DNA of 60,999 bases from Poseidonia sp. (GCA_038124565.1 JAYPCE010000004.1:1-60999), one strand, 5' to 3'; shown: positions 26,440 to 58,461, counted from the stretch's first letter. Notes: a model not told the origin generated them from the sequence alone. Made by a program: numbers and translations.

Positions 26440-27573
26440 TCATTCCTCCTCAACATGGAGGGTTGTTTGGCGAGAGAGCGGGACCTCCAAATGACCCAAA
26501 CGAAAACCGATGAGACGGATGTTCCTGTCCGAGTCAACATTCGTGGCAAAGAGGTGTTGTGCAAGTCGTTTGAACACCGAAGGGTCGTCCATAGCCACGG
26601 GAATACTCCGGCCTGCTGAATGGGTTTCAAAACCGGTGTACCTGATTTTGACCTCACCTAACCGACCAGAAACCCCCAGACCTATCGCACGACCCATGAC
26701 GGCGTCCACCAGGTCGGTCAACCGGTCGAGCACCACCTCATGATCGCTCCTGTCCTGCTCAAAGGTATGCTCTTTGCCGATGGATTTGCGACTTTGAAGA
26801 GGACTAACATCGCTGCTGCTTTCACCCTCCACCACCGTCATGAACCATGAGGCAAAGCGCTCACCGGCAAGACGGGAAAGCGATAATTCACCTAGTTCGT
26901 GAAGTTCGTCTGCGGTCGTGAACCCCCATTCAGCCAGTTGCTGGGCGCGTTTTGGACCTATGCCGGGAATTTCTCTCAAAGATCGCCCCTCAAAGAACGA
27001 TTTTACCTCGTCGGGCATCACACGGAAAATACCGTTGGGTTTGTTCACTTCGCTGCTCATTTTCGCGAGAATCCGAGTGGGTCCAATACCGAACGATGCC
27101 GTGAGACTCAAGTTCGCAAAAATTTCCTGCTGCAGGGATGTTGCGAGTGCAAAAGCAGCGTCCCAATCACCCTTCACACGTTCCGTGACGTCAAGATATG
27201 CCTCGTCAATGCTGGCCTTTTCAAACAAATCGGCTTCCCTGCGCAAGGACTGCATCACCTTACGACTCGCTCTGCTGTAAAGCCCCCGCGTTCCTCGAAT
27301 GTAACATGCAGGACCAAACGGTGCTGCCGGACACCTGCGCCAAGCCTCTGAAATGGGCATGGCGGAATGGATGCCGTATGTTCTCGCCTCATAATTGCAC
27401 GTTGAAACGATGCCGCGACCTCGGCCTTGCTTTGGGTCCGAACCAATGATGAGTGGCACAGATGGGTCAAAGCCATGGTGCAGTGTTTCTACGGCCGCAA
27501 AAAAAGCGTCCAAGTCACAATGGATGATGATGCGACCCTCAGCCGCGGACGGGTTCTTTTCCAGTTCACCCAC
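26440..27573 (-). CDS. dinB: Y-family DNA polymerase IV (DinB/Dpo4-like)
   Basis: Catalytic blocks are intact: IIHCDLDAFFAAVE and SIDEAYLD. Also present are STCNYEARTYGIHSAMP, the HhH motif IPGIGPKRAQQL, and a little-finger domain. The start is GTG at 27573. Confidence 0.85.
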   Translation of the reverse strand: MGELEKNPSAAEGRIIIHCDLDAFFAAVETLHHGFDPSVPLIIGSDPKQGRGRGIVSTCNYEARTYGIHSAMPISEAWRRCPAAPFGPACYIRGTRGLYSRASRKVMQSLRREADLFEKASIDEAYLDVTERVKGDWDAAFALATSLQQEIFANLSLTASFGIGPTRILAKMSSEVNKPNGIFRVMPDEVKSFFEGRSLREIPGIGPKRAQQLAEWGFTTADELHELGELSLSRLAGERFASWFMTVVEGESSSDVSPLQSRKSIGKEHTFEQDRSDHEVVLDRLTDLVDAVMGRAIGLGVSGRLGEVKIRYTGFETHSAGRSIPVAMDDPSVFKRLAQHLFATNVDSDRNIRLIGFRLGHLEVPLSRQTTLHVEEE

Positions 27574-27600
27574 ACATCATTTCCTAAGCCAAAGGTGCTT

Positions 27601-27623
27601 GAACTTGATGCATCATTCAGTTC
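27601..27623. promoter_or_regulatory. Imperfect palindrome in the dinB / imuA-like divergent intergenic region (candidate operator)
   Basis: In GAACTTGATGCATCATTCAGTTC the core TGATGCATCA is a perfect 10-bp palindrome, flanked by GAACT...AGTTC arms. It lies in the 98-bp spacer between the two divergent start codons. Confidence 0.3.
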
Positions 27624-27671
27624 AACAAAGGGGTGTAGAGAACGATTGATGACCTCCGATGGTGACCGTCC

Positions 27672-28457
27672 ATGATTGACATGACTGACATACCAAGCGG
27701 CGCAGCACGGACACATATCATCAAGCCACCTCTCCAAGAAGTGGACCTCTCGCTGGTGTCACCCCAAGCTGGACAACTCTACCATTTGTCTGGCCCCGGA
27801 CACGCTGGACGCGGCATGCGCCCCGTAGCGGAGCATTGGGTGGTTGAAGCGTTGGTCCGAGGAGAAGTGGTGCATTGGGTAGATGGCGCGTGTCGTATTG
27901 ACCCTTCGCGTCTTCTTCCTGCACTGGCTGAACGAAACGCAGACACCGATGCGTGCCTTTCCCGCCTCTACTTGAGCCGAGGATTTACATTGCATCAACT
28001 CGACCGGCAACTTGAGCGTCTTCCTCAAGAATTGGCCATCACACGTTCGCCTTTGGTGGTGATCGACGGATTGCTGGCCATGCATGGGGACGATGCCATT
28101 CGACGAATTGAATCAAGAGTCTTGTTACGACGCCATCTTCAGGTGATGCAAGACATCGCTGAACGACAGCACAGAGCAGTGGTCGTCATCACGGAATCAA
28201 CCACCAATGACTCGCATCATCAACGTTTGATTCAATGTATTCATCGTCATGCACAAAACCATCTCGTTGGTCACTGGCAGGGTTCGCGACACAAACGAAT
28301 GCTCCATCTACACCATCCACGAACCGGTTTGCGAGGCCTCTGGCGCAGCACACCAAAAAGCGAGCAGACCAATCTTGTCCTCACGTATCACCCCGCACAT
28401 CTTCAGGTATTTTCGGCCTCGGTGGGCTGTTTGCCGTTGCTTCACGAAAAACGTTGA
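27672..28457 (+). CDS. Degenerate RecA-fold protein, ImuA/RadB-like (hypothetical)
   Basis: This 261-aa ORF is the only long ORF in the interval. It has a Walker-A-like LSGPGHAGRG (K to R, S/T to G), VHWVDGACRIDPSRL, LSRLYLSR, a Walker-B-like SPLVVIDGLLAMH, and RAVVVITE. The layout resembles ImuA/RecA-core proteins. Its 3' end overlaps the convergent PolB gene by 77 nt. Confidence 0.5.
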   Translation: MIDMTDIPSGAARTHIIKPPLQEVDLSLVSPQAGQLYHLSGPGHAGRGMRPVAEHWVVEALVRGEVVHWVDGACRIDPSRLLPALAERNADTDACLSRLYLSRGFTLHQLDRQLERLPQELAITRSPLVVIDGLLAMHGDDAIRRIESRVLLRRHLQVMQDIAERQHRAVVVITESTTNDSHHQRLIQCIHRHAQNHLVGHWQGSRHKRMLHLHHPRTGLRGLWRSTPKSEQTNLVLTYHPAHLQVFSASVGCLPLLHEKR

Positions 28458-30882
28458 AGTCGTACAGTGTTGGCTGGCGTCCAACGCCACGCAAGTCTTC
28501 CTCGGTCCATCCAAAGGGCGCAAGAATCGCCCACACAGCCCGTTCGGCGAGGGTGGTGTAGTGGGTGAGACAGGCCGTGGTCGTTACAGGAACCGAAGGA
28601 AGTTCTTCGGCAAGAACGACCCTATCCAACGGCTCAGACGCAGAAACATCCACGACAACATAGCGTATTTTTCCACCAGGTGGTACATGATGTCCTTGCA
28701 GATGAGCGCGCATGAGCGCTGCGTAGGTGAGGTTTTTCACGCGGTAATTGCCCAGCGTGGATGTCACGCGTCGCGTCACGACGAGAGCGTCGAGCGGAAC
28801 TTCACGGCGTCCAAGACGCTGGCATTCTGTGCGGTACAACCGCAACACCTGTTGTTGCCCTTTCATGTCGGGAATCCCGTTGACACGACCACTTGACGCA
28901 AGGACCTGAAGGGCTTGCTCTTGAAGTGTACCAATCCAAGAGGGCGTGGAGTGTTGGCGCATTTCAATGCCTCTGACCTTGAATTCACCACCACCGTATG
29001 CCCAATACTTGGTCAGCGAACCTGTTCCGTGAACTCGACTTGGAAGAAACGCAATGAAGTCGTAATGTTGCTCCAATTCCAGCGGTATACCGATGAGCGT
29101 TGTCATGCGTTCAGCAAATGCTGCGGCATCATGCTGCTGTTGCTCACGGGTACGCTGGGCTCGGTCAAGTAACCACACACAATCAACAATGGCGTGGAGA
29201 ACATCCCATCCCGCATGTTGCGCTTCCTCAATGGTCGTGAGCAAAATGTCGCGAGACCACGCACAAATTGCCTCGTGCGCTTCGATGCGCCCAAAACGAG
29301 CATTGCGATAACCTGTGTAGCCAAAGCAGGTAACAAGCAACCATTTGAGAGCGTTTTGCCGCAAGTCAAAGGCATCACCTTTCTTCTTACGTTGACGTTT
29401 GAGTACGCTGCGACGCTCGATGATGGGAGCGACCACGCGACCCAAGAATCCATGCCGACGCCCGCAGGTATGGCTGCTGAGACCTGGTACACGCAACGCT
29501 TTCTCATGCGCCATGGGGAACAACCCGTGGCCAAATTGTGAGCGTAACCGCCGATTTCGAAAATCGGCTTCTGCATCGGACGGATGCAAAGGAACGATGC
29601 CTGTGTTGTTCGCCTCTGAAGGTGGTTGACAGCACGCACAATTCAATGTCTCCGGGGAGATATTTCGTGTCGCAATGATGCTTGGAAACAGGCTGGCAAA
29701 ATCAAGTTCGATGACCGAGGCATACACGCCTGGACGGCTGTCAAGGTACAATCCCCCCCGGTCTGCCTGCAGAAGTTCCAAGGCAGACTTGGTGTCTTCA
29801 GGACGATTTTTCTTCCATGGAACAAGGACGCCATCGTCCATGGCCACACGCATTTGTATCGCACTGATGACCGAACCCGGAGAAAGACGCGAAATGACTT
29901 GAGCAGATTGACATGAATGTTGAGCCAATTCGAACAGACCGGCGGCTCCGCCTTCTTTGACGATGAAACTGTTGCGTAAATCAAGGTGCAAACGGCCTTC
30001 CAAAAAATAGGCACCGTGACGATGCAACGTGTGTCCATACGACTGTACGGTTCGGGCTTGTGTGGACGGTGAGAGGGGAGTTGATGTTCGTCCGAGACGT
30101 ACCTCGCACCCGAGCCGTTGACCTTGTTCTACCAGCCACGGAAACAAGCGTTGGTCACCACCGTATGTCAACACAACATCGGGATCAGAGCGGTCATACA
30201 GATGCTGAAACGCCTCCAACATGGACGCAAACGAATCGAAATCCTCCCGCAAAAGAACCGTTTCTTGCACGGGATGAAGGGCCCTGAGAAAGCCTGGTTC
30301 TCGGACCGGTTTGAGACGAAACGCGTGCACGGCATCGTGCAACGAGGGAAGACCATGCGATGGAGCAAAATCAATGGCCAACTGAACCACGCGAAAAGGA
30401 GGAAACATGTCCACCTTTACGGGGGTTGTCGCCGCCATTGTACGCAGTTCATGGCCGTCCCAACGCACACGTGAAAACGGCTCGCACTGATGTTCATTCA
30501 GGAAACGCTGGGCCAAGTGCGCATCAACAGAAAAGAGCGTGTAGCGATGAAAATCTCCTCGTGCTTCGATGTGCTCGGCAAGCGCTCGTAAATGACGGAA
30601 TGGCTCAATAAAAACTTCCAGCACCTTGACCCTGTCGTCACTTTCCAAATCCAGCCGCATGGACCGAGTAGAGACCCCCTTGATGCCGAAACGTGCGGCA
30701 ATTTCGGGTTGACGCAACCAATGTGTCAAATGTCCAAGTTCACGGGTTGAAGCATGGACATGGAGACTTGCTCGCCACGGTATCTCGCAACCGTGTGCCG
30801 AGCCTTCGTCGTCAACAATCCAAACCACCATGCCTGTTTGCGAACGGTTTTCATGAAGGTCCAACAACCACCCTTCAATCAT
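28381..30882 (-). CDS. Family B DNA polymerase, divergent (exonuclease motifs degenerate; PolB2/Dpo2-like in character)
   Basis: Pol motif A is VIELDFASLFPSII and the KxY motif is SLTKYWAYGG. Motif B is degenerate (RQNALKWLLVTCFGYTGY) and motif C is VLHAIVDCVW instead of YGDTDS. Exo I is LAIDFAP (DxE becomes DxA), Exo II is TYGGDQRLFPWL (FD lost), and Exo III is QHSCQSA (Y...D lost). The ATG at 30882 (MIEGWLLDLHE) is preferred over the listed TTG at 30900. Confidence 0.8.
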   Translation of the reverse strand: MIEGWLLDLHENRSQTGMVVWIVDDEGSAHGCEIPWRASLHVHASTRELGHLTHWLRQPEIAARFGIKGVSTRSMRLDLESDDRVKVLEVFIEPFRHLRALAEHIEARGDFHRYTLFSVDAHLAQRFLNEHQCEPFSRVRWDGHELRTMAATTPVKVDMFPPFRVVQLAIDFAPSHGLPSLHDAVHAFRLKPVREPGFLRALHPVQETVLLREDFDSFASMLEAFQHLYDRSDPDVVLTYGGDQRLFPWLVEQGQRLGCEVRLGRTSTPLSPSTQARTVQSYGHTLHRHGAYFLEGRLHLDLRNSFIVKEGGAAGLFELAQHSCQSAQVISRLSPGSVISAIQMRVAMDDGVLVPWKKNRPEDTKSALELLQADRGGLYLDSRPGVYASVIELDFASLFPSIIATRNISPETLNCACCQPPSEANNTGIVPLHPSDAEADFRNRRLRSQFGHGLFPMAHEKALRVPGLSSHTCGRRHGFLGRVVAPIIERRSVLKRQRKKKGDAFDLRQNALKWLLVTCFGYTGYRNARFGRIEAHEAICAWSRDILLTTIEEAQHAGWDVLHAIVDCVWLLDRAQRTREQQQHDAAAFAERMTTLIGIPLELEQHYDFIAFLPSRVHGTGSLTKYWAYGGGEFKVRGIEMRQHSTPSWIGTLQEQALQVLASSGRVNGIPDMKGQQQVLRLYRTECQRLGRREVPLDALVVTRRVTSTLGNYRVKNLTYAALMRAHLQGHHVPPGGKIRYVVVDVSASEPLDRVVLAEELPSVPVTTTACLTHYTTLAERAVWAILAPFGWTEEDLRGVGRQPTLYDFNVFREATANSPPRPKIPEDVRGDT

Positions 30883-31144
30883 CGCAACGACCTTCTTCAA
30901 GCGCCTGCAGTCGTTGGCTGAGTTGCTCGTTACGTACCGCCAACCCCACCAACATGTTGAGCAACATCATGTGCCAGGTATCGATGGCTGGAAGCATCCC
31001 CCCGGCTGCACGACGCTGGCGAACATCGTTGAGCAACGCGTCGAAGATGGCGTGTTCTGATATCGGCAAGGCTCGCCTGTATGGAACAAGTCGTTCCAAT
31101 TCCGCTTCCACTCGTGTTCGCCAAGGAGGTACACTTCGGCCCAT
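30875..31144 (-). CDS. Small helical hypothetical protein, translationally coupled to the PolB gene
   Basis: An 89-aa ORF with an ATG start at 31144. Its TGA stop (30875-30877) overlaps the PolB ATG (30880-30882) in ATGATTGA. The sequence is Arg/Leu-rich and looks helical. No family recognised. Confidence 0.45.
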   Translation of the reverse strand: MGRSVPPWRTRVEAELERLVPYRRALPISEHAIFDALLNDVRQRRAAGGMLPAIDTWHMMLLNMLVGLAVRNEQLSQRLQALEEGRCDD

Positions 31145-31208
31145 AGCGACGAGAGATGCGAGAACATCCTCTTCCTTTTCTCAGACCCAGAAGTTGAAAG
31201 TGAAAGTG

Positions 31209-33449: not shown

Positions 33450-34202
33450 TCATTCCAACCAAGGAATGTGCTCGGGAACCTCACCGAAAAGATTGGCTGG
33501 AATAGCTGTTTTAATTTTAGAAACTCCACCGAGTTGGGCTGATGTCGAGGCTTGCCAAGCTGCGTATTCCTCAAGGGAAGACATACGCAAAATTGGATTG
33601 TGTTCTCTGTTCCACGCCAGGGATTGCATCAGCGTTCCTGGCGGGTCATGGCCCGAACAAACAATCGTTTGTTCCTCAAAGCGTTCCAGTACGGCCAATG
33701 CATCCCAATGGACATCAACTCGCCCGCTGGGCAAATCATCACGACCCACACCGCCGTTTCCGTTGAAAAGGAAATCACCCGTCATCATGTAGCCTGGAAC
33801 ATGAACGATCATCGAATCGTTGGTGTGTCCAGGGGCTGCGTGGAATTGGATTGGGACTGACCCGAGCATGATTTTTTCTTCATCGTCAACAAGCATCGTC
33901 ACGCCGAGGCTTGCCGTGTTGTTGTACATCACATATTCACAGTCGTAGTGTTCCCGAAGCGAAAAACACGCCGTGATGTGGTCCGCATGTGTGTGCGTTG
34001 CAATGGCATAGACAAGGGTCAGTCCATCGCGCTCAAGGCGTTCGATGTACGATTCCAAATAGTCATAGACAGGGTCGACCAAAGCCGCCAATTTCGTGGA
34101 CTCATCGACAATAAGGTAGGTCATGGCCCACACGCCCTCGTTCAGTTGTTCAAATCGCATCAAGCGTGGGACTGCATTCACGGTCTTGAACTTTGACCGC
34201 AT
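33450..34202 (-). CDS. Metallo-beta-lactamase fold hydrolase (glyoxalase II-like)
   Basis: It has the HxHxDH motif ATHTHADHI and downstream His/Asp ligands (APGHTNDS, CSGHD). An alternative ATG lies at 34160. Confidence 0.8.
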   Translation of the reverse strand: MRSKFKTVNAVPRLMRFEQLNEGVWAMTYLIVDESTKLAALVDPVYDYLESYIERLERDGLTLVYAIATHTHADHITACFSLREHYDCEYVMYNNTASLGVTMLVDDEEKIMLGSVPIQFHAAPGHTNDSMIVHVPGYMMTGDFLFNGNGGVGRDDLPSGRVDVHWDALAVLERFEEQTIVCSGHDPPGTLMQSLAWNREHNPILRMSSLEEYAAWQASTSAQLGGVSKIKTAIPANLFGEVPEHIPWLE

Positions 34203-34240
34203 ACGATTTCATCATATACTGTCGGCACCATTGAAAATTC

Positions 34241-35449
34241 ATGGTAGGATTGGTTGAATATGGATTTTTGATGCTCGGCGGGGTATTTGGTGGAATCATT
34301 GGCTGGTTGGTCGCCAAGCAATCAAGCTCTGGTGAACTTATTCGTGCTCAGGAACGTCTGCGGGCAAGTGAGGAAGCCGCTGCCATCAACGAGCAGCGCA
34401 TACGGGCAGAAGTTGAGAACATCGGAAAAAAGGTCAGTGCCGAAAACACCGAGCAATTTCTCAAGTTTGCACAAGAACGTTGGGCAAGCAACCAACAAGA
34501 AGCCGAGCACGCCCTTGAAACTCGCAAAAAAGAGGTGGAGCACCTCCTAAAACCTCTTCAAGAAGAACTGCTGAAGTTGCAAGCTCACAACACCGAGATG
34601 GAAAAAGACCGAGTCGGTGCTTACGAGGGGTTGCGCCGCCACATCAAAGAACTCGGTGACAAAACCGATTCCCTATCAACCCAAACGACCGTACTCTCCA
34701 CAGCCTTGACAACTTCCGGACAGGCCCGAGGGAATTGGGGCGAGGTCAAACTGAGACGCTTGTTTGAGATGGCAGGGCTCTCGGAGCACGTTGATTTTCA
34801 CGAACAGGTCACGCTAGAAAATGGTACCCGGCCCGACTTTGTTGTTGTGTTACCAGAGCAAGCCGTCATCCCCATTGATTCGAAAGCCATTGGCGAAAAA
34901 TACCTCGAGGCAGTGAATATTGACCCCGGGCCAGAACAGGATGCATTGTTGCTCAAACATGCAAGAGCCATGAGGAACAGAATCAGTGACTTGAGTTCAA
35001 AGGGCTATCAAGAGTCTATCGAGGGAGAATTTGACCATGTCATTATGTTTGTACCGAGTGAAGCCATGGCGGCTGCAGCGTTTACCGTCGACCCTGAACT
35101 CATGGAATATGCGATGAGCAAAGCCGTTTTGATTGCAACACCCGTGACGATGCTTGGCCTACTACGCACGGTTGCATTGTACTGGCAGCAGCATGCTTTG
35201 GCTGAAGGAGCAAGAGAGATTTACGATGTCTCGCGCGAGTTTTACAAGCGTGTGATGACCATGGTGGAACATTTCAACAAAGTCGGCGGTCACCTTTCGA
35301 AGGCAGCAAAAGCCTACAACGACACCATCAATTCCTACGAGGGAAGGGTCTTGCCTCAAGGTCGTCGGCTGGACGATCTCAAGGTATCTGAAACCCTACC
35401 GGCCACTCTACCGGAAGGAAACGACATTTCCGACTTCCCAAAAGAATGA
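34241..35449 (+). CDS. rmuC: DNA recombination protein RmuC family
   Basis: An N-terminal TM helix is followed by a long coiled coil and then the RmuC nuclease-like core: GNWGEVKLRRLFEMAGL, RPDFVVVLPEQAVIPIDSK, VIMFVPSEA. Confidence 0.8.
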   Translation: MVGLVEYGFLMLGGVFGGIIGWLVAKQSSSGELIRAQERLRASEEAAAINEQRIRAEVENIGKKVSAENTEQFLKFAQERWASNQQEAEHALETRKKEVEHLLKPLQEELLKLQAHNTEMEKDRVGAYEGLRRHIKELGDKTDSLSTQTTVLSTALTTSGQARGNWGEVKLRRLFEMAGLSEHVDFHEQVTLENGTRPDFVVVLPEQAVIPIDSKAIGEKYLEAVNIDPGPEQDALLLKHARAMRNRISDLSSKGYQESIEGEFDHVIMFVPSEAMAAAAFTVDPELMEYAMSKAVLIATPVTMLGLLRTVALYWQQHALAEGAREIYDVSREFYKRVMTMVEHFNKVGGHLSKAAKAYNDTINSYEGRVLPQGRRLDDLKVSETLPATLPEGNDISDFPKE

Positions 35450-35497
35450 GGGACTGCAAATACGAGCATTCATGTTCAACGCTCCCATCGCGTGGAT

Positions 35498-36229
35498 ATG
35501 CACCCGGAACTCGTTGTTTATGTCGAGCACGATGGAAAGGTGTTACTTGTAGACGTGAATGGAAATGGACCAATCCAGCCAGATGCAGGACGGTTGGACG
35601 GTAGAGGTGAATATCGGTTTCCTACCCCCAGCGAACTTGTAGAATTGGACATTGCCTATGTTGAGAAAGGCCATCTCACGCTTCATTTTGGAGACCGTCC
35701 CTACCAGGTCGTCAAGGCATATCCGAAGATTCCTTGGCCTGAATCATGGTGCTGGAAAGATGATTGTATCGCTGACAACGCAGTTCATCCAGTAGCAAGA
35801 GAAGCCATCTATCGTTCATTGCACCGTCTTGTGTCAAAGGTCATGGTGCGAAATCCGGACGGTCATATCCTCATGGGCAAAGTAGAACGAGGTCATTTCA
35901 ATGGATTTTGGACCTTACCGGGCGGATACATGGACCACAACGAACATCCGGCAATCGGATGTGTTCGGGAAACATTGGAAGAACTTGGACTGACCATTGT
36001 TTTGGAGAATGTGGAACCGGTGATCACTCAGAAGGTCTTCAACAACGAAGGGATCTCCTTCGTTTCCTTCACCTACCAGTCTACGTGGGATGGAGATGTT
36101 GGTGAACTCGTACTCCAAACCGAAGAAATCTCAGAAGCAAAATGGTTCTCACCGGATGAAGCCTATGCAACCGCAGTATCTCATTTTGACCGCGAGGCAT
36201 TGCGGTCTTTGTTGGAAAAACATCCCTAA
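35498..36229 (+). CDS. NUDIX hydrolase with N-terminal extra domain
   Basis: The Nudix box is GGYMDHNEHPAIGCVRETLEELGL. The ATG at 35498 is preferred over the listed GTG at 35492. Confidence 0.8.
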   Translation: MHPELVVYVEHDGKVLLVDVNGNGPIQPDAGRLDGRGEYRFPTPSELVELDIAYVEKGHLTLHFGDRPYQVVKAYPKIPWPESWCWKDDCIADNAVHPVAREAIYRSLHRLVSKVMVRNPDGHILMGKVERGHFNGFWTLPGGYMDHNEHPAIGCVRETLEELGLTIVLENVEPVITQKVFNNEGISFVSFTYQSTWDGDVGELVLQTEEISEAKWFSPDEAYATAVSHFDREALRSLLEKHP

Positions 36230-42981: not shown

Positions 42982-44118
42982 ATGTCCGAGGAGGCAGTGA
43001 CAGAGCAGGGTGTCGCCCTCGCTCACAAAGACCTCCCATTTCGGATGGCCGATATCGAACTGGTCAATCCATTTCCCGCAACCATGCCGATGGCCGAACC
43101 ACTCAACAACATACGCAGAGAATGGCGATTCCAATTTCAACTTTTGAGGGCAGAGTGGAAGAAACCGCATTATATGGCGATGCTCTTTGGCATGCTTGCG
43201 CTGGCCTTGGGCTCTGTATCCACCGAATTGTGGGACGGTGGTGATGCCAAAGTCAGTGGGATTGAAGGGATTCTCGCCATCAATGGTTTCCAATTCTTCC
43301 AAATCTTGGTGTCACTCCTCTGCTGGGCCTGGTTTGCCTATCAAGCATGGATGCTGTTTCCGGTGATGAGAGTTCACGCCATGTCGTTGTTGGTGATGTG
43401 GAATGCCATGATGGGTGCGCAGATTTTCTTTCACCGTAACAACGGTACATTTCCCATGGGTTTCAAACTCTCGGAAATGATGGAAGGGACATTGATTATG
43501 CTCATCGTTTTCTTTTTCCTCTTTTTCTTCTGGAAAGCGGTCGTTGAAACACGAGATTTGCATGTTGAGGTACACCATCTGCATGAAGATGTGCGAGTCA
43601 TGCAAGCCGAATTGGCTGAGCATTCTCTCAAAGGCTGGTCAGCAATGTTTGCAACATGGGTGTTCCTCATCACGCTTTCATCGTGGTCAGGATTACACCA
43701 TATCGCAGAATATGGAGAAGGTAACTACGGGTTCCTTGTCCTGCATCTGCTGACGGGTCTTCCCGCAATCCCGCTTTTTTTGGTCGTCTTGTGGTACCCA
43801 CAGCGCATGCTCGGGAACGAAGCACGTATCAGAACGAAAGCAGCAGTTGATGCAGCCTTGGAAATGGAAGGAGGTTCTGTGCAAGGTCACAATAAAGCAG
43901 CATGCCCGGATTGTGGCGCGGCTTCCAATGTCGCAAGAAACTCGGACGGAGCCTTAACCCACCCTTGTCTCTCCAGCGGATGTTCAGCCACGGTGGTCAT
44001 CGGAACAACCTGTTCATCCTGCAAATCAGAATCACTGGTGTCAAATCGATTGGATTGCGGAGCATGTGGCGTTAACGCTCCTGCTTTGGACTTCTTACCC
44101 GACCAGGAGGCATGGTGA
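42982..44118 (+). CDS. Membrane protein with C-terminal Cys-rich zinc-ribbon region (hypothetical)
   Basis: A 378-aa ORF with about 6 TM helices. The C-terminal part is CPDCGAAS...HPCLSSGC...CSSCKSES...CGACG. Its stop overlaps the next gene's start (ATGGTGA at 44112-44118). Confidence 0.6.
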   Translation: MSEEAVTEQGVALAHKDLPFRMADIELVNPFPATMPMAEPLNNIRREWRFQFQLLRAEWKKPHYMAMLFGMLALALGSVSTELWDGGDAKVSGIEGILAINGFQFFQILVSLLCWAWFAYQAWMLFPVMRVHAMSLLVMWNAMMGAQIFFHRNNGTFPMGFKLSEMMEGTLIMLIVFFFLFFFWKAVVETRDLHVEVHHLHEDVRVMQAELAEHSLKGWSAMFATWVFLITLSSWSGLHHIAEYGEGNYGFLVLHLLTGLPAIPLFLVVLWYPQRMLGNEARIRTKAAVDAALEMEGGSVQGHNKAACPDCGAASNVARNSDGALTHPCLSSGCSATVVIGTTCSSCKSESLVSNRLDCGACGVNAPALDFLPDQEAW

Positions 44119-45338
44119 ACATGTTGGAGCGATGTCGTCTCGATTTCCCCACACTTCAAGGTGATCATGCCCCTGCCTACCTTGACAATGCTTGCGTGAC
44201 GCTAAAGCCACAATCGGTGATTGATAGCATCAACCAATATTACACCCAGACCCCTGGATGCGGTGGCCGCTCAGTTCATCGCTATGGCACGGCTGTTTCC
44301 AAAGGTGTAGCCGATGCACGCCAAAAGGTCGCGTCCTTCCTCAACGCCAACACGAGTAAAGAAATCGTGTTCACAAGAAATGCTACGCATTCCATTAACC
44401 AAATCGCGCATGGACTCACCTGGGAAAAAGGAGATGTGATTCTCACGACCGACCGTGAACACAATTCCAATCTTGTACCTTGGATTCAACTCAAACAAGA
44501 GCAAGGCGTCGACCACCAGGTGGTGCTAAGTAACGAAGACAACACTTTCGACATGGAACGTTTTGAGCGAGCATGTGACGATTCAAACGGAAAGTTACGC
44601 ATGGTAGCAATGAGCCATGTTGGAAACCTTGACGGCGTTAGCATCCCCATTGCAGAGATCACAAAAATTGCCCACGACCATGGTGCGTTAGTGGCGGTTG
44701 ACGGAGCTCAATCCACTCCCCACATGAGCGTGGATGTGCAATCTTTGGGCATTGATTTTCTTTCATTCTCCATACACAAAATGTGCGGACCCTCGGGCAT
44801 GGGTGGCTTGTGGGGGCGATATGACTTACTCGAGGGTTTACGGTCCATTCAATCTGGTGGGCAAACTGTCAGCAGTTCAACCTACACGGACGCCCATTGG
44901 GCCCAACCTCCTGCTCGGTTTGAAGGGGGACTTGGAAATTTTTCCGGAATGGTGGCGACCGGTGCAGCCATCGACTACCTCTCAACATTGGACATGGATG
45001 CAGTGCACGACCATGAAGTCAAACTCAATCGAATCATGACCCAAGGCGTGAAAGATTTACCCGGTCTTGAAATCATTGGACCCGAGGACCCCAGCCAACG
45101 CGGCGGCATTTGCTCCTTGCTGATGAAGAACCTTCCAGCACACGAAGTTGCATTGTTGCTTGATGAAGCGGCAGGCGTGATGGTGAGAAGTGGGCAACAT
45201 TGTGTCCATTCTTGGTTCAACGCCCGAGGACACCCCGAAGGGTCACTTCGTGCATCGGCCTACCTCTACAACTCTGAAGAGGATGTGCGCCGGTTTGTTG
45301 ACACGATGGACGAAATTGTGCACACCCTTGGAGGTTAA
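44112..45338 (+). CDS. Cysteine desulfurase (class V aminotransferase, SufS/CsdA-like)
   Basis: Motifs: YLDNACVTLKP, the PLP-lysine block SFSIHKMCGPSGMGGLWG, and the active-site region RSGQHCVH. Confidence 0.85.
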   Translation: MVNMLERCRLDFPTLQGDHAPAYLDNACVTLKPQSVIDSINQYYTQTPGCGGRSVHRYGTAVSKGVADARQKVASFLNANTSKEIVFTRNATHSINQIAHGLTWEKGDVILTTDREHNSNLVPWIQLKQEQGVDHQVVLSNEDNTFDMERFERACDDSNGKLRMVAMSHVGNLDGVSIPIAEITKIAHDHGALVAVDGAQSTPHMSVDVQSLGIDFLSFSIHKMCGPSGMGGLWGRYDLLEGLRSIQSGGQTVSSSTYTDAHWAQPPARFEGGLGNFSGMVATGAAIDYLSTLDMDAVHDHEVKLNRIMTQGVKDLPGLEIIGPEDPSQRGGICSLLMKNLPAHEVALLLDEAAGVMVRSGQHCVHSWFNARGHPEGSLRASAYLYNSEEDVRRFVDTMDEIVHTLGG

Positions 45339-45342
45339 ACCC

Positions 45343-46524: not shown

Positions 46525-47252
46525 GGAAGCCAAGCAACCAATGTACCTCCGAACAATGGCATGAAGGCCACGTGATGGGAATGCTGTGTTTCACGAACCA
46601 ACTCAATCCATGCATTGAACCCGTCAACCAGCGCCAGCCCTTCAGCATCGTCTTCTGCAACCTCTCCAGTTGGCATATCAGGCTCTACCGTGTAGAGGAC
46701 GCCGTTTGACGAGAGAAATGGAAGGTAGGTTCGAACCAAGGCCGCCCGTTGACTTGATGGCCCATCGATAACGACTGCATCGTACATCTGTTCGAAAGGA
46801 GTTTGTGAGTGGTCTTGATTCGTTGTTGCCGTGAGTGACCATGCTTGGTGTTCAGCAGCCAACTGGAGGGGGTCACCGACCAACACCTTCGACCAAGAAA
46901 GCGCATTGTAACGGTTCAAGAGACGCTGCAAGATGACGCCAAATTTGCCTCCCTGTTCTACCAATGTGAATTGGCGATAGGGCCGATTCTGTCGCTCAGC
47001 GATGTCTAATATCCATGCTGAGCGATGGCCAATGCCAGCCCCAACCTCAAGTAATGACGATGGTTGTTGCCTTGCAATGGCATCTCGGAGTCTCCTCAGT
47101 ACAGAGAGTGACCATGTGGAAAGTCCCATGTGTTGCAATTGTTCGTGAATGTTGGCCGCAATCAGGGGTTCATCCCTTGGTTGCTCATGGTCTTTGGAGA
47201 GAAGAGTAGCCAGAACAGCACCCCGTTCTGCCGTTGCAGCCTCTTCCGTCAT
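46512..47252 (-). CDS. SAM-dependent methyltransferase (O-methyltransferase family 3-like)
   Basis: SAM motif I is LLEVGAGIGHRS, with an acidic post-I residue (LVEQ) and DAVVIDGP. The ATG at 47252 is preferred. The 3' end overlaps the convergent protease gene by 13 nt. Confidence 0.7.
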   Translation of the reverse strand: MTEEAATAERGAVLATLLSKDHEQPRDEPLIAANIHEQLQHMGLSTWSLSVLRRLRDAIARQQPSSLLEVGAGIGHRSAWILDIAERQNRPYRQFTLVEQGGKFGVILQRLLNRYNALSWSKVLVGDPLQLAAEHQAWSLTATTNQDHSQTPFEQMYDAVVIDGPSSQRAALVRTYLPFLSSNGVLYTVEPDMPTGEVAEDDAEGLALVDGFNAWIELVRETQHSHHVAFMPLFGGTLVAWLPHED

Positions 47253-52686: not shown

Positions 52687-55600
52687 ATGATGTCGGTGAA
52701 GCCGTGCTGTCCCCGAGGCAACAGCCTCCTTGCAGTTGGCCTTTCTCTGCTGATGGTGTTGGTGCTCTTCGTACCGCTTTCACACCCCTCACCCCTTACC
52801 AATGAACAGATGCCTCAGCCTACATCAGGCCAGGACACATGGAACGCCTATGAACAACCATGGGCGCAGTATGCACGCACACCTACCCATAACCAAAGCG
52901 TTCCAGACCATGGCCCCGACGGGGGACCCGGGAATGGCAATATCAGCGACGTCACGGAATTGGCCACACTTGAACACCCCACCATCAACTGGCAGGTCTT
53001 TGACACAGGCGACGGAAGTGATGCCTATGGTTCGGTCATCGGAGATTTCTCTCAAAGCATTTCAGCTACCGAGGCTGCTGTTGAGCGTTGCGGTGCAGGC
53101 ACACTCTTTCCGGTCATGATTTCAAGCAGTACAGCGGATGGGACGTGGGAAAGTTTCCTCAACATCGTGAGCGGAAACGATGCAAAGGTTGCCTGGCGTG
53201 TCTCGCTTGGCGTAACCGAGCCCATTCGATCAACGCCGATCATCCACGATATGGACGACGACGGGCATCAAGAGATCATCGTCGTGTACGACACACAAGG
53301 TGCGCTCAACATTGACGTCTGGTCGCCTCGCCTCACCTGTACGGAATCCAACTGGCAGACATCTGGGCACAGCAACGAACTCGTTTGGTCATACGCTGAT
53401 GCTGATGTGCGAATTGCGTCGCCTTCACCGCATTTCCAAACCGAGAATTCGGGACATAAAGCCGTCACTCAACCATTGCTTGCAGACCTTGAACTCGATG
53501 GGACTCCCGAACTTGTGCTCGCCGTGGTCGACGATCCAGAGAACAATCCGTCGGTGTACCTCAATGCCTACACCTTGACCAATGCACAACCATCAGCAGA
53601 AGATTGGAGCGTTAATTTGGACCGTGGCACCCACCCTTCTGACCCCGTCTGGGCACAACTTGACAGCAGCACCTCATCGGTGCTGCTGACCACCATCGAT
53701 TCCAATTCTGGGAACATGTGGATTTGGAAAATTGATGGTTCAACCGGCTCTCTGGATTGGGAACGGGTTGCTGTTCAAGGCACTGATTCTGATGCGGATG
53801 CACCACGGCTTCGCTTACCCGGCCCCGTCATCACACAACTGGATAATGATGCAGCACCGGAAATGATTCTCACCGTTCCCACCGATGCTAACGGACGAAC
53901 TTCCGGGTCAGGTGCTCGATTCATCGGCATGGAGATCACATCAACAACCGAGGTGTTTAACTTCCGTGCACAAAATGGCTACGCCGACGCTCAACCGCTG
54001 CCGTTGGATACCGATGATGATGGCATTTCAGACCGCCTTTGTTGGGTCACTTGGTACTCAGAGTCCACAGTGAGTTTCAATCGGAAGGGCATGCTCGGCT
54101 GCACTGATATCAGCGGGTCTTCCCCCGTCAATGAGTGGATACGAGATTTGCAACGTGGAAGCGGTAACGACAACGACGAAATCGCTGCATCACCACCGTT
54201 CTGGTTGGACATCGACGGTGAAGGTACCCCCGAGATTTTGGTTGGATTTGGCCGCCGGCTTTGGGCGTTTGACGGTGACACGGGAGCTTCTGCGGACATC
54301 AACAACGAGTGGTCCACGCCGCTAAGCATGCCCCATCGTGTTTGGACTGCTCCTGCGTTAGCTGATGTTGACGGTGACGGCCACATCGATGTGCTCTATG
54401 GTGACACCTTGGTCTCAACAAGAGGCGTTGACCTCGCACCGTCCTTCGATAACCGCGGTTTGTCTTTCAATCCTGCACAAGCAGATCCTGGCGATACGGT
54501 GACGGTGACAGCACAATTTTCCAATATCGGCACGAGCGAGGCTGATGACGATGTGGATGCTGCTATTCTGATGAACGGTGTTGAAATTGGCCGTGAACGC
54601 TTCACATCAAGCGAACCGGTCGCCCCCACGGCCGAAGGTGGGCCTCTGACCTTTACCGCAGAATTTACAGCACAACTCGGCGTCCATATGTTTGAACTCG
54701 TTCTCGATGTGAACAACAACATCACTGAGCAACGCGAAGATAACAATCGGGCGCAAGCATCCTTTTCCGTTGTAGAGCCCTATGTCGCTGAATTGGATGG
54801 TCCTCTTCAGACACCAAGAGTGCTTCCCGGTGGTTCTGAACAGGTTGACATCACCGTCACATCAACAGGCTCCCGTACAGCGGAGTGGTCGTTAAGTGTA
54901 GAAACAAATGACCTCCCGAATGATTGGACCTTTGCTCCATTGGTAGGTCAATCCATGTCGTTTGAATTGGTACCTCAAACACCACTCAATCTCGCGTTTG
55001 AAGCCTTTGTTCCATCCAGTGCCCTTGGAGACGAAGCGGGTGTTGTTTCATTCCTCTTGTACCTCACGAGCGACCCAACCATCAATACAACGCTTGAACT
55101 CCCCATTGAAGTCTTCCGCACTCGCGGATTGGACCTTTCTGGCCCCACAGGACTGAACGCTTCGAACGGACAGGGCCGGCCCGGAGAAGTTGCTGCTGCT
55201 TGGTTCATGGTTGAAAACCTCGGAAACGCTCAAGAAACCACGACATCCATCACATGGACTGCGCCATCTTGGGGCGGTTCGCCATCCATTCACGATGCTC
55301 AGGGGGCACAACTGTTCAGCATTACACTCAATCCTGGAGAAACCAAAGAACTGTTCGCACATCTGCCCACACCCGCCTCAGCAGCCTACGGAACTACGAC
55401 ACAATCGACGCTCACCTTGTGCATGGGCAGCGGTGAAGACCAACTCTGTGAATCAATGCCGTTCACATTCACTTCGCAGAAATTCGTGCTGGAACCGACC
55501 CATCACCGATCTCTGCCTGCTGCCAATCTTTCGTGGACGCTCACAGGCACACTGCCCACAAACGGCATGGTTCAGTGGAGTATGGTTGAGATGGGGATGA

Positions 55601-58461
55601 TGCAAACCAACTGGCAGTGGAGTGTGACAGGTGACTGGAACATCAACGGAAGTTATCTTGAGAGCCAGGGAACTGGAGGTGATGTGGTGACGGGCGAAGT
55701 ACGCCTTCAGTTGCCACCCAATGCTGTTCCCAAACGCCATGCGTTTGTTGGTATTGACGCCATGGATGGAGATGCTCAATTCAATGCAACGCTCCAAGTC
55801 CTCCAGATTTTCCGGGCAAATGTTTCCATCCTCGACCCACTCCCTCCAACGGGTGAATCCATTCTTTCTCTCAACGTCAGCGAACCTCAACGTTTCCTTT
55901 TGTTCTTAAGCAACCCCGGAAACGGCGTTGACACATTCCAGTTACAAGCAACGGTGTCTTCGGACCAACCCGAGTTCAATCCCGATGTTTCATTCACGTA
56001 CTACGACCCCGTGAAAACACTAGGTGCATTGGCCACAGGCATTGGAACGGTGGACATCACACTCTCCGAAGAAACCCCTGCTTTGACACCATTTACGCTG
56101 ACCTTCACGTGGTCCTCAGAGGGTGCTGAACATGCTGTTGACAGTATGAGTGTTGAGATTCAAGCGGCACCAAGTCATGAATGGCAGGTGACTCCTCTCA
56201 ATGGAACGACACTTGAAGGACGACCTGGTGAAATCGCACATGTCCAGTTGAATCTCACGAACTTCGGGAATGCTGTAGACTCCCTCTTGCTTGTTCCTAC
56301 GCTTGACGCGCAGCTTGCAGGCAACGACGCTTCAATATGGAGTGCTGATTCAGTGGGAGTTTCTAACCTCGCCATTAACGAGAGCACCATGATTGATTTC
56401 AGCATTGAAATCCCCGCTCAATCGTGGGCGGGTAGCAGTGTGACCATTACGCTTGCACACATGACAAGCGGCTACACCATCGGTGAAACGGCACTGACGC
56501 TTGATGTCGTGGCCGTTTCAGGGTGGAGGTTGAACCTGACCGGTGCTGACCTTGAAATTGCACCAGGCGGGGAAAATCTCACGCTCCAGCTCGTTCATAC
56601 CGGAAACGCATACGAGACGGCATATTTCACCAAAGCCGGTGCGGGTTGGAACATCACCCTGCCCGATGCAAGTCTTGACATTGCTCCATTTACGACGACA
56701 AGCTTCATCGTTTTTGTTCAACCACCAGAAAACGCGATTGCTGGAGAAATTGGCGTCTTGCAGATTCGCATCACAGGCAACGATACGAGTGGCATGATAG
56801 AAGAAGAGATTCCGGTTAAAGTAGGAGCACAACCTCAACTGCATATTGACCACCGAAGTGCGTGGAAGGTCAACAACCTCGGTGGCTTTCCGACAGCATG
56901 GGTTGAAAATCAGGGCAACGATATCGCAATTCTATCCCTCGATGTCGCCGACCTTCCCGAAGGCTGGTCCACACAACAAGGAAGGCAACTCGTACTGGCC
57001 CCCGGTGAAATCGCAGGACTGCCTTTGGAATTGATTCCGGCTTCGGATTGGAATCAGCAGCGATTCTTGGTGACCATCAACATCCATCATCCGATTTTAG
57101 GAACCCTCCCTCATAGCATTGAAGTCGAGTATTCTGCGGTCACCTTCGCAGATACCCCCGTTCGCGATGCCTATGTTGGCGCACAACAATCCGTAGCCTA
57201 CCACGACACCTCGGGTCAACAAGTGACGTTCTCCAGCAACATCGATCTCTCGGTTTTAGACGGTGAATTGAAGTTTATTCAACCCTCTACAACGGGTCAA
57301 CAGGTCATCACATTCGCTTCAGAAAGTGGACAAGGCAACATTTCAATCTACACGGTTTCACGAACATATCCGGATGCTGAAATTGACTGTGACTTCCTCC
57401 CTTCGGTGTATGATAGACTCGGAATGGAGGCACTCCAAGGTGTCGTAGCCACATGCACCCTGACTGCAGGAAGCAGTGATGATTTGAGAGCCGTGCTCAC
57501 ATTGACAACTTCAACCGGCGAGCGTGTCAGTCTTGCCGACGACCGATGGACCGTGTCAGCCGGCATGACCGAGAGCGTCAACATCAGCATCGAAAATTGG
57601 GACCCGGACGCTGGCATCTTCTCTTTACAATTACGAGGCTATGACCAATTCGGGCGAGCCTTGGAATCCATGCAACAAGAAGTCATCGCACGTGAGAGCG
57701 GTTGGAACATTGGAATCAATTCGCTCTCAACCGACGGCGACATCCGAGTTGGGATTAAGCGAACAGGGTATGAACTCTTGACAGAGGCCGTCTGTGAACT
57801 CACGGTTGTCGCCTCTGGCGGATGGGAAACTACCTACATTGTTGATGTGGCCTATGCAGATTTTGCACCGGTTATTTCCATCGACAATCCGAGGCAAATT
57901 GAGAAGGATGAGCGAATTACAGTCAGCATCGCCTGTAGCCTACCGTTCGATATTGACGACAATCCCGATGATGATTCAATGAGTGCGTATTACAAGCCAG
58001 AAAGCATCTTGACCGTGTCATCCAACGAGGTTGGCTGGATTATCGGTATCGCCGCCGTTCTCTTTGCAGCGGCTTGGTTTGGAGGATTTATTCGTCCTGC
58101 GCAAGTTTCCAGTGCTTTACCAAGGAATGCATCCAAGCCAACGACCAGACGCCAACCATATGAGGGAAATGGCGAAAGCGAGCCTCAAGCGGAGACGCAA
58201 CAACAAGAAATTGAAGATGTCTCTATTGAACAAAGCCAGGATGGCAAAGAACAACCTCCAGAAGAAGCCTTTGATGAGGAAAGTCAACAGGCGCAAATGG
58301 ACCTCATCGAGGTCATTGAAGCCCCACCCACCGCAGACGAGACACCTGCAGACGCCAGTGGCCGATTGGCGTCACTTCGCCAAGAAATGGGGACAGAATC
58401 TCCGACTGAGCGAGAGGGTAAACTCGAAGACCGCATGAAACGATTCTTCGGAGATGATTGA
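52687..58461 (+). CDS. Giant (1924 aa) secreted surface protein: FG-GAP/VCBS-like beta-propeller, CARDB domain, multiple Ig-like/CARDB-like repeats, C-terminal TM anchor and acidic tail
   Basis: The signal peptide is LLAVGLSLLMVLVLFVPLS. Propeller blades are DMDDDGHQEIIVVYD, LELDGTPELVLAVVDD, LDIDGEGTPEILVGFG and ADVDGDGHIDVLYGD. CARDB is PGDTVTVTAQFSNIGTSEA...NNNITEQREDNN. The C-terminal TM helix is VGWIIGIAAVLFAAAWFGGF, followed by a Glu/Gln-rich tail. Confidence 0.85.
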   Translation: MMSVKPCCPRGNSLLAVGLSLLMVLVLFVPLSHPSPLTNEQMPQPTSGQDTWNAYEQPWAQYARTPTHNQSVPDHGPDGGPGNGNISDVTELATLEHPTINWQVFDTGDGSDAYGSVIGDFSQSISATEAAVERCGAGTLFPVMISSSTADGTWESFLNIVSGNDAKVAWRVSLGVTEPIRSTPIIHDMDDDGHQEIIVVYDTQGALNIDVWSPRLTCTESNWQTSGHSNELVWSYADADVRIASPSPHFQTENSGHKAVTQPLLADLELDGTPELVLAVVDDPENNPSVYLNAYTLTNAQPSAEDWSVNLDRGTHPSDPVWAQLDSSTSSVLLTTIDSNSGNMWIWKIDGSTGSLDWERVAVQGTDSDADAPRLRLPGPVITQLDNDAAPEMILTVPTDANGRTSGSGARFIGMEITSTTEVFNFRAQNGYADAQPLPLDTDDDGISDRLCWVTWYSESTVSFNRKGMLGCTDISGSSPVNEWIRDLQRGSGNDNDEIAASPPFWLDIDGEGTPEILVGFGRRLWAFDGDTGASADINNEWSTPLSMPHRVWTAPALADVDGDGHIDVLYGDTLVSTRGVDLAPSFDNRGLSFNPAQADPGDTVTVTAQFSNIGTSEADDDVDAAILMNGVEIGRERFTSSEPVAPTAEGGPLTFTAEFTAQLGVHMFELVLDVNNNITEQREDNNRAQASFSVVEPYVAELDGPLQTPRVLPGGSEQVDITVTSTGSRTAEWSLSVETNDLPNDWTFAPLVGQSMSFELVPQTPLNLAFEAFVPSSALGDEAGVVSFLLYLTSDPTINTTLELPIEVFRTRGLDLSGPTGLNASNGQGRPGEVAAAWFMVENLGNAQETTTSITWTAPSWGGSPSIHDAQGAQLFSITLNPGETKELFAHLPTPASAAYGTTTQSTLTLCMGSGEDQLCESMPFTFTSQKFVLEPTHHRSLPAANLSWTLTGTLPTNGMVQWSMVEMGMMQTNWQWSVTGDWNINGSYLESQGTGGDVVTGEVRLQLPPNAVPKRHAFVGIDAMDGDAQFNATLQVLQIFRANVSILDPLPPTGESILSLNVSEPQRFLLFLSNPGNGVDTFQLQATVSSDQPEFNPDVSFTYYDPVKTLGALATGIGTVDITLSEETPALTPFTLTFTWSSEGAEHAVDSMSVEIQAAPSHEWQVTPLNGTTLEGRPGEIAHVQLNLTNFGNAVDSLLLVPTLDAQLAGNDASIWSADSVGVSNLAINESTMIDFSIEIPAQSWAGSSVTITLAHMTSGYTIGETALTLDVVAVSGWRLNLTGADLEIAPGGENLTLQLVHTGNAYETAYFTKAGAGWNITLPDASLDIAPFTTTSFIVFVQPPENAIAGEIGVLQIRITGNDTSGMIEEEIPVKVGAQPQLHIDHRSAWKVNNLGGFPTAWVENQGNDIAILSLDVADLPEGWSTQQGRQLVLAPGEIAGLPLELIPASDWNQQRFLVTINIHHPILGTLPHSIEVEYSAVTFADTPVRDAYVGAQQSVAYHDTSGQQVTFSSNIDLSVLDGELKFIQPSTTGQQVITFASESGQGNISIYTVSRTYPDAEIDCDFLPSVYDRLGMEALQGVVATCTLTAGSSDDLRAVLTLTTSTGERVSLADDRWTVSAGMTESVNISIENWDPDAGIFSLQLRGYDQFGRALESMQQEVIARESGWNIGINSLSTDGDIRVGIKRTGYELLTEAVCELTVVASGGWETTYIVDVAYADFAPVISIDNPRQIEKDERITVSIACSLPFDIDDNPDDDSMSAYYKPESILTVSSNEVGWIIGIAAVLFAAAWFGGFIRPAQVSSALPRNASKPTTRRQPYEGNGESEPQAETQQQEIEDVSIEQSQDGKEQPPEEAFDEESQQAQMDLIEVIEAPPTADETPADASGRLASLRQEMGTESPTEREGKLEDRMKRFFGDD

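Follow-up and report, generated by a model that had tools for sequence, protein, structure and literature searches.

The archaeal family-B DNA polymerases of the PolB2 (Dpo2) group were reportedly first predicted to be inactive by Rogozin in 2008. Here we describe a member of this group, polB2, which is encoded on the minus strand at positions 28381..30882 of a 60,999-nucleotide (nt) stretch of DNA from Poseidonia sp. (GCA_038124565.1, JAYPCE010000004.1:1-60999; this whole stretch is hereafter called the window), together with its two partner genes. Makarova et al. (2014; PMC4104785) took PolB2 as inactivated from substitutions in its catalytic motifs, and placed it in an operon with arCOG07300, a helical protein of ~90 amino acids (aa), and an inactivated RadA. 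Later biochemical work on Dpo2 from S. islandicus has revealed a robust polymerase with no 3′-5′ exonuclease that behaves as a translesion "extender", being accurate on undamaged DNA and excelling in the extension of mismatched or lesion-paired termini (PMC8764526). More recently, Timinskas, Timinskas and Venclovas (2025; PMC11791011) renamed arCOG07300 "partner of PolB2" (PPB2) and modelled a PolB2-iRadA-(PPB2)3 heteropentamer, in which iRadA is the inactivated RadA/Rad51-like protein. In the same work it was noted that most PolB2 proteins, but not all, replace the first Asp of DxD (S. islandicus carrying the sequence 401-IID-403), and that the group carries the motifs KW[IV]LV[AV]CFGY and HGI[IV]D, exemplified in its data by KWILVACFGYQGF...HGIVDSIWV in Halobacteria and KWVLVVCFGYTGY...HGIIDSLWV in Thermoplasmata. 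An AlphaFold-Multimer model of EHR76801-EHR76800-3xEHR76802 was also presented there, with a predicted local distance difference test (pLDDT) of 87, an interface predicted template modelling score (ipTM) of 0.86 and a ranking score of 0.866, and the published model puts a PolB2 loop against iRadA and the PPB2 arm (PMC11791011). The system is therefore already known, and the Poseidoniales PolB2 orthologues have already been catalogued and modelled.

We consider it highly probable that the gene in the window encodes the catalytic subunit of this archaeal PolB2 "mutasome" on a Poseidoniales chromosome, with a likely role in damage tolerance. An uninterrupted minus-strand open reading frame (ORF) spans 28381..30900; its ATG at 30882, which is also the start of the public gene call (P0001), gives a product of 833 aa, while a TTG at 30900 represents an alternative start. 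The product matches the Pfam family DNA_pol_B (7.5e-18), bearing out the family-B polymerase that an initial annotation, made from the sequence alone, had placed at 28381-30882; the exonuclease domain reaches only 0.0011, under the cut-off. Among NCBIfam models the best are NF004418 (1.3e-111) and NF004416 (5.6e-107), whereas no PolB1, PolB3 or Pol II model does better than 3e-25. Both can be regarded as PolB2 models, because published PolB2 proteins match them best: NF004418 gives 812 bits with a published haloarchaeal PolB2 fragment, and the same two models head the list for a published Thermoplasmata PolB2. The window protein is 52% identical to the published PolB2 EHR76801, encoded on the marine group II (MG-II) chromosome CM001443.1 (our locus L058), and the motif strings DFASLFPS, KWLLVTCFGY, HAIVD, TKYW and ADRGG are the same in both. 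When the GTDB species, each represented by a single genome, were scanned, 186 relatives were returned, of which the best 80 were all Poseidoniales loci; the nearest database relative is 83% identical, and the close homologues all come from Poseidoniales (marine group II) or from metagenome-assembled genomes (MAGs) labelled Thermoplasmatota/Euryarchaeota. The source databases label this gene "DNA polymerase I", "elongation subunit" or "hypothetical protein".

The second line of evidence is provided by the two genes flanking polB2, neither of which the initial annotation had noticed. Directly upstream, PPB2 (30875..31144, minus strand) encodes 89 aa beginning MGRSVPPWR, and its stop overlaps the polB2 ATG by 8 nt (ATGATTGA), as read directly off the sequence. 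With EHR76802, a PPB2 already published, the product shares 54% identity (E 4e-32); it has the MGR[TS] arm with Arg3 and Arg9 that is conserved in the other PPB2 loci, and is predicted to form three helices (7-25, 28-47 and 56-86) that leave the N-terminal arm free. PPB2 lies directly upstream of polB2 in all 75 species-representative loci. Searches of the protein against local Pfam and NCBIfam models yielded no match, in the case of Pfam not even at E=10. In precomputed annotation, PPB2 homologues in two further loci (L001 5740-6000 and L002 5733-6020) are tagged DUF8156 (PF26485), which is probably the Pfam name for PPB2/arCOG07300.

On the other side, iRadA (27672..28457, plus strand; 261 aa) is convergent with polB2 and adjoins it in 75 of 76 loci. 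It matches Pfam Rad51 (1.7e-5) only from profile position 63, and RadB at 1.2e-5, so that the N-terminal domain of RadA is missing, and it shares 42% identity with EHR76800, an iRadA already published (E 3e-53). Its catalytic Glu position is occupied by Ala, as in 77 of 78 sequences compared. The Walker A motif reads GPGHAGRG in the window, having lost the Lys, while most Poseidoniales iRadA proteins retain GxxxxGK[ST] (Lys kept in 49/78 sequences, e.g., GPGRAGKS); the Walker B Asp is invariant. From these residues it is conceivable that part of the iRadA family binds nucleotide without hydrolysing it. The 3′ ends of polB2 and iRadA overlap by 77 nt (28381-28457); overlaps of ~55-60 nt occur in loci L001 and L003, and L002 has none. 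The window genes are orthologues, from another species, of EHR76802, EHR76801 and EHR76800, and their gene order, orientation and neighbours are those of the Poseidoniales group "3b (PPB2-PolB2-iRadA)" of PMC11791011.

The exonuclease region of the window protein departs from that of its proofreading relatives at all three motifs. In HMMER alignments with Pyrococcus and Thermococcus PolB, YGGDQRLFPWL (30133..30165, minus strand) pairs with the Exo II sequence YNGDNF(D)FxYL, the Asn being replaced by Gly and the catalytic Asp by Leu, exactly the losses that had been read by hand at first. The Exo I position, LAIDFAP (30361..30381, minus strand), falls outside every local alignment and was placed by its spacing to Exo II and by a predicted beta-strand at residues 165-172; the catalytic Glu is lost, as the initial annotation proposed, and the Asp and Glu columns at this place vary freely among the 116 homologues described below. 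The Exo III assignment requires correction. The pentapeptide HSCQS, taken then for Exo III, pairs in HMMER alignments with chain residues 336-340 (LIGQS), downstream of the YxxxD motif, whose place in KOD numbering is about 311-315. The stretch that runs from the GRxHxDL strand to the Exo III helix is shorter in this family than in Thermococcales PolB by ~45 positions (about 56 when counted against the KOD sequence). The published haloarchaeal PolB2 spans the same short stretch, also lacking Exo III, without a gap, and no YxxxD was found in residues 270-320 of the window protein. Together, the alignment register, the missing positions, the gap-free haloarchaeal alignment and the absence of YxxxD indicate that the Exo III helix is deleted, not substituted. 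Consistent with this notion, the AlphaFold2 model contains one 18-residue helix (306-323) where PolB3 has several. Hence, the predicted PolB2 of the window has no exonuclease active site, the Exo I and Exo II carboxylates being lost and Exo III deleted, a conclusion that survives the displacement of HSCQS.

By contrast, the polymerase centre is preserved in an alternative form. HMMER alignments with the same Pyrococcus and Thermococcus proteins pair LDFASLFPSII with LDFRSLYPSII at motif A (DFASLFPS, 29680..29703), which keeps the catalytic Asp394 and carries Phe instead of the steric-gate Tyr; KWLLVTCFGY with KILANSYYGY at motif B (KWLLVTCFG, 29320..29346), where the Lys is kept in a PolB2-type signature; and HAIVDC with YIDTDG at motif C (29179..29196), where IVD replaces DTD, the first Asp becoming Ile and the second, metal-binding Asp being retained. 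All three lie on the minus strand, and all motif coordinates were checked by translation. The alignments agree with the hand-made readings of motifs A, B and C, including the survival of only the second Asp in the last. The supposed conservation of the KxY motif holds in part: L-T-K-Y pairs with K-K-K-Y, so that the Tyr and the Lys immediately before it (Y-1) are retained, but the Lys at Y-2 is Thr. The product is collinear with PolB3 and a search for a Hint/intein domain in it found none, in agreement with the original reading that there is no intein.

The term "degenerate", which had been applied to parts of motifs B and C, does not do justice to their conservation. Across 116 full-length PolB2 homologues, 48-83% identical to the window protein, motifs A, B and C and the TKY sequence are invariant down to 48% identity; D394, K513 and D567 are invariant, and I565 and V566 essentially so. 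Columns of the palm, motif A and fingers segments have a mean identity of 0.90-0.92, as opposed to 0.59 and 0.60 for those of the exonuclease domain and the thumb, respectively. As judged from these columns, the motif pattern is conserved far beyond chance, and the polymerase motifs are best read as a conserved alternative signature under strong constraint, not as degenerate remnants. The window sequence KWLLVTCFGYTGY...HAIVDCVWL has the same form as the published Halobacteria and Thermoplasmata PolB2 motifs. A conserved core next to a drifting exonuclease site is what would be expected if the enzyme had a working polymerase centre and a non-working exonuclease centre.

These observations bear directly on the possibility that the protein is a catalytically dead pseudo-polymerase with no role beyond scaffolding or regulation. 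Replacements have indeed taken place at the first Asp of DTD, at the Asn, Ser and Tyr of motif B and at all the exonuclease carboxylates, and it was from the same substitutions that Makarova et al. (PMC4104785) inferred inactivation. However, the metal- and dNTP-binding residues D394, D567 and K513 and the palm and fingers core are held invariant in 116 sequences in which the exonuclease site drifts, and Dpo2 from both S. islandicus and S. solfataricus, each with IID in motif C, is a robust polymerase (PMC8764526). We therefore regard a dead polymerase as improbable. The designation proofreading-deficient, non-replicase polymerase given initially is upheld by the PolB2 signature, the PolB2 profiles and the flanking PPB2 and iRadA genes; "low-fidelity" and "regulatory", also suggested then, are not the best labels, given that Dpo2 copies undamaged DNA with high fidelity and extends lesion termini (PMC8764526).

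The predicted structure of the PolB2 protein has a complete family-B architecture. The AlphaFold2 monomer (pLDDT 77; predicted template modelling score, pTM, 0.76) superimposes in Foldseek on Thermococcales PolB structures with template modelling (TM) scores of 0.6-0.7; confidence is low at the 358-378 loop and in a Poseidoniales-specific insertion. In phmmer searches, the best matches in the PDB are likewise Pyrococcus and Thermococcus PolB (7e-36). To our knowledge there is no PolB2 structure in the PDB, which explains why PolB3 is the nearest solved relative. This resemblance, along with a PolB3-like length and the preservation of a C-terminal PCNA-interacting protein (PIP)-like box, could be taken to mean that the gene encodes the usual replicative or lagging-strand enzyme of the cell, of PolB3 type, and that this lineage has simply lost its proofreading. 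Nevertheless, the PolB2 profile matches more than 80 orders of magnitude better than the other PolB models, polB2 is locked to PPB2 and iRadA in the genomes examined (75/75 and 75/76 loci), and the orthologue sits within the published PolB2 tree and operon set (PMC11791011). Neither an intact Exo I DxE, Exo II NxxxFD or Exo III YxxxD nor the DTD of archaeal PolB3 was found in the window protein. In addition, a haloarchaeal PolB2 aligns to residues 278-491 of the window protein with 106 bits (E 6e-29), and Pyrococcus abyssi PolB to the overlapping stretch 324-427 with 41 bits. A PolB3 identity is thus very improbable. As for a mobile-element or viral polymerase (casposon, magrovirus or provirus) integrated in the chromosome, magroviruses of Poseidoniales are known from the literature to encode family-B polymerases, but the housekeeping surroundings, a flanking order constant in dozens of species, an even GC content and the absence of integrase, terminal protein and capsid genes nearby make it a negligible alternative.

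The assignment of the gene to a chromosomal PolB2 mutasome leads to a mechanism that can be outlined from its relatives. For these, Dpo2 polymerase activity, lack of exonuclease, extender behaviour, damage induction and an AlphaFold heteropentamer have been described (PMC8764526, PMC11791011); for this organism we infer catalytic activity, complex formation, PCNA binding, a hand-off from inserter to extender, and co-regulation. By homology, PolB2 would assemble with one iRadA and a PPB2 trimer (1:1:3). The docking surface for iRadA would be the invariant VLVPW...ADRGG beta-alpha loop of PolB2, and one MGRS N-terminal arm of the PPB2 trimer would enter the PolB2-iRadA interface beside D374-R375. 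A C-terminal Qxx-L-xx-F box would hold the complex on PCNA. The Y-family polymerase encoded next door could then insert a nucleotide opposite the lesion, PolB2 would extend from the distorted terminus, leaving it unexcised, and synthesis by the replicase would subsequently resume.

Several features of the PolB2 sequence can be matched to these steps. The loop preceding motif A, VLVPWKKNRPEDTKSALELLQADRGG (29752..29829, minus strand), is near-invariant, ends in a D-R dipeptide and coincides with the region of low monomer pLDDT at 358-378. Within it, the stretch VLVPWKKNRPEDTK..LL.ADRGG is near-invariant and D374-R375 invariant in the 116 homologues, and ADRGG aligns with DADRGG of haloarchaeal PolB2. 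By analogy with the published complex, this loop is a candidate for the beta-alpha motif that binds iRadA and for the D(K/R) motif in contact with the arm of PPB2 (PMC11791011); D374-R375 would be the equivalent of 253-DK-254 of S. islandicus, judging from its position rather than from an alignment. In the otherwise variable C-terminal tail, where pLDDT falls below 50, the PIP-like motif QPTLYDFN (Qxx-L-xx-F; 28453..28476, minus strand) stands out by its conservation: L806 is invariant, F809 is Phe in 110 of 116 sequences, and position 803 is Q in 64, K in 31 and R in 13. This box probably tethers the complex to PCNA. The 77-nt overlap with iRadA starts right after its codons. A PIP box was also sought in iRadA, and no conserved motif was found among the four tails compared.

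A further feature, a Cys cluster at 29464..29640 (minus strand), is made up of CxCC (29629-29640) and HxC (29464-29472). The invariant residues C415-x-C417-C418 and H471-x-C473 flank the Poseidoniales-specific insertion of ~41 aa; haloarchaeal PolB2 lacks this insertion but has C-D-C-H...C at the corresponding place. The cluster is possibly a four-ligand metal site. The words "zinc" and "cysteine" appear nowhere in the text of PMC11791011, which leaves a Cys/His site unmentioned.

Some observations weigh against the view of this gene as an active translesion extender of the PolB2 group. Motif B is devoid of the canonical Asn, Ser and Tyr and the Lys of KxY has moved by one position, changes that may confer kinetics unlike those of Dpo2. 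The confidence of the AlphaFold2 monomer is poor around motif A (400-420), around motif B (520-539) and also in the KY loop (616-623). The activity assays come from Dpo2 of S. islandicus and S. solfataricus, another lineage (PMC8764526), and the Poseidoniales protein, with ~830 aa and a fuller exonuclease domain, is much longer than the assayed Sulfolobus enzyme. The placement within PolB2 relies on profiles, identity and the published set. Finally, adjacency of the Y-family polymerase is absent in 19 of 69 species, so that a pairing of inserter and extender is not obligatory in gene order.

The Y-family polymerase itself (26440..27573, minus strand) is a 377-aa protein of the DinB/Pol IV/Dpo4 type, divergent from iRadA. 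It matches Pfam IMS (2.4e-35) and IMS_C (9.4e-17) as well as the NCBIfam Pol IV model NF002677 (265 bits, against a cut-off of 256), and carries the catalytic motifs DLDAFFAAVE and SIDEAYLD. Being apparently intact by its motifs, it is a candidate "inserter" outside the published mutasome. It adjoins the system in 50 of 69 species loci; the clade with a PolB2 of 48-51% identity to the window protein lacks it at this position. PMC11791011 tabulates IMS as a neighbour in 46 of 95 group 3b operons without discussing it; the other counts in the same table (Table S1) are 45 for 2-Hacid_dh_C, 42 for tRNA-synt_1 and 32 for Lactamase_B.

The mutasome genes also share a conserved element in their upstream DNA. 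In front of the PPB2-polB2 operon, the comparison of 72 distinct upstream sequences, each covering 120 nt, has revealed CACTTTCACTTTCA (31195-31208) followed after 6 nt by GGGTCT (31183-31188), altogether 31183..31208 on the minus strand. It is present in front of PPB2 in practically every Poseidoniales locus, and starts 64 nt before the PPB2 ATG in the window and in most loci; as a pattern for genome scans it can be written CANTTTNANTTTNA, and ACTTTCACTTTCA occurs as a single exact copy in the 61-kb window. Between dinB and iRadA, an alignment of 36 distinct intergenic regions shows two conserved blocks (27594..27636, plus strand), namely GGTGCTTGAACTTGATG (27594-27610) and ATTCAGTTCAAC-aaa-GGGGTGT (27615-27636). 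The second, which is the iRadA copy of the window clade (ATTCAGTTCAAC-n3-GGGGTGT), has one T fewer per half-site than the PPB2 element, and the GGTGCTTGAACTTGATG block on the dinB side resembles a related copy when read on the dinB strand. A position weight matrix (PWM) built from the PPB2-upstream sites was used to scan 924 kb of Poseidoniales loci (L001-L083). Its hits at 14 bits or more lay upstream of PPB2 in 77 cases, as follows from the construction of the matrix, and upstream of iRadA in 33, with only 12 elsewhere. The canonical element lies upstream of iRadA in 25 of 25 loci lacking DinB, while in loci containing DinB, the window among them, the PWM score upstream of iRadA exceeds the 99th percentile of the background in just 27%. 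With one T fewer per half-site in such loci, the statement that the window has the same element rests on alignment, not on the PWM. It can be safely stated that a specific upstream element is common to the oppositely oriented mutasome units. This is demonstrable for the sister clade without the neighbouring DinB and is based on alignment for the window clade, and it argues for co-regulation.

The PPB2 element contains two tandem copies of ANTTTC (ACTTTC ACTTTC), the hexamer 5′-ANTTTC-3′ of the Sulfolobales damage-response promoters, which Orc1-2 binds and through which it activates them (PMC6061795). As in Sulfolobales, the element lies less than 100 nt upstream of the start codon, and the gene is damage-induced in Sulfolobus; the arrangement differs in that a tandem 14-mer is found here at -64, while in Sulfolobus the motif occurs once, between -23 and -55. 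Because the hexamer is short, the resemblance could be due to chance and serves as a lead only. Neighbouring orc1/cdc6 genes are found in 0 of 95 group 3b operons (PMC11791011). It is possible, although we would lean against it rather than towards it, that PPB2-polB2, iRadA and mostly dinB share a lineage-wide cis-element (tandem A-N-TTTC plus GGGTCT) that defines a dedicated damage-tolerance regulon pairing inserter and extender polymerases, perhaps under a factor related to the ANTTTC/Orc1-2 system of Sulfolobales. No DNA motif is discussed in the survey of PMC11791011, and the element is absent from the literature searched. Modest new leads are thus provided by the cis-element and by the regular presence of a Y-family polymerase beside the system, the former offering a concrete starting point in the search for the regulator of the damage response in an uncultured group.

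The surroundings of the locus are those of a chromosome. The window contains housekeeping genes for class I and class II aminoacyl-tRNA synthetases (the latter alanyl-tRNA synthetase, AlaRS), SHMT, RtcB, a 2-hydroxyacid dehydrogenase, RmuC and a NUDIX protein, and the order metallo-beta-lactamase - membrane protein - dehydrogenase - PPB2 - polB2 - iRadA - dinB - aminoacyl-tRNA synthetase is the same in dozens of species. GC content is even throughout the polB2 region. The housekeeping surroundings, this even composition and the Poseidoniales homologues argue that polB2 is a chromosomal Poseidoniales gene. The genes for the metallo-beta-lactamase-fold protein, the DNA recombination protein RmuC and the NUDIX hydrolase lie a few kb off, at 33450-36229, and are syntenic in L003; they may form with the PolB2 locus a loose DNA-maintenance cluster. 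In the last third of the window (42982-60823) there is an ORF of 1924 aa (52687..58461). A polB2-iRadA-dinB-aminoacyl-tRNA synthetase locus with 69% identity to the window protein is also present in a contig (NZEQ01000045.1, L036) assigned to "Verrucomicrobiales bacterium isolate ARS100", most likely an archaeal contig that was mis-binned into a bacterial MAG.

The main consequence concerns annotation: PolB2, with the description translesion extender subunit, is the proper name for the gene in place of the present database labels, and its short neighbours should be called PPB2 and iRadA. One of the most abundant archaeal lineages of the sunlit ocean universally retains the PolB2 mutasome, as a rule next to a Y-family polymerase, which is sensible for surface plankton exposed to UV.

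Among known systems, Dpo2 of Sulfolobus/Saccharolobus islandicus (PMC8764526, PMC7390963) is the closest counterpart with an assayed enzyme, and the comparison with it suggested by the initial annotation was well chosen, the window protein being a PolB2 of the Dpo2 type. The two share I-[IV]-D instead of DTD, the lack of an exonuclease site, and an operon with PPB2 and an inactivated RadA, and a role as translesion extender is expected for both. They differ in that the exonuclease domain of Sulfolobus PolB2 is far more decayed and its iRadA is co-directional (group 3a; PMC11791011), while the Poseidoniales protein has the ~41-aa insertion with invariant Cys/His flanks and Phe for Tyr in motif A. 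The Thermococcales PolB enzymes (PolB3; KOD, Pfu, 9°N, P. abyssi) resemble the window protein in fold and domain order, align with it at motif A, the fingers helix and the thumb, and also end in a clamp-binding-type C-terminal tail. However, Exo I-III, DTD and KxxxNSxYG are all intact in PolB3, which acts by itself with PCNA, whereas the window protein lacks the exonuclease carboxylates and the Exo III helix and has two partner genes.

More distantly, the system recalls E. coli Pol V (UmuD'2C-RecA), the eukaryotic Pol zeta and the bacterial ImuA-ImuB-DnaE2 cassette, multi-subunit damage-tolerance polymerases that recruit a member of the RecA/Rad51 family or an inactivated relative. An archaeal analogue of ImuA-ImuB-DnaE2 was entertained and dropped: the polymerase belongs to the B family and is not DnaE2, the Y-family neighbour is intact and not ImuB-like, and the PolB2-PPB2-iRadA literature fits. 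Pol V is of the Y family and DnaE2 of the C family, and their accessory proteins are unrelated to those of PolB2, so that what these systems have in common is a likeness of architecture, not membership. Pol zeta and PolB2, on the other hand, are both exonuclease-dead extenders of the B family (PMC11791011).

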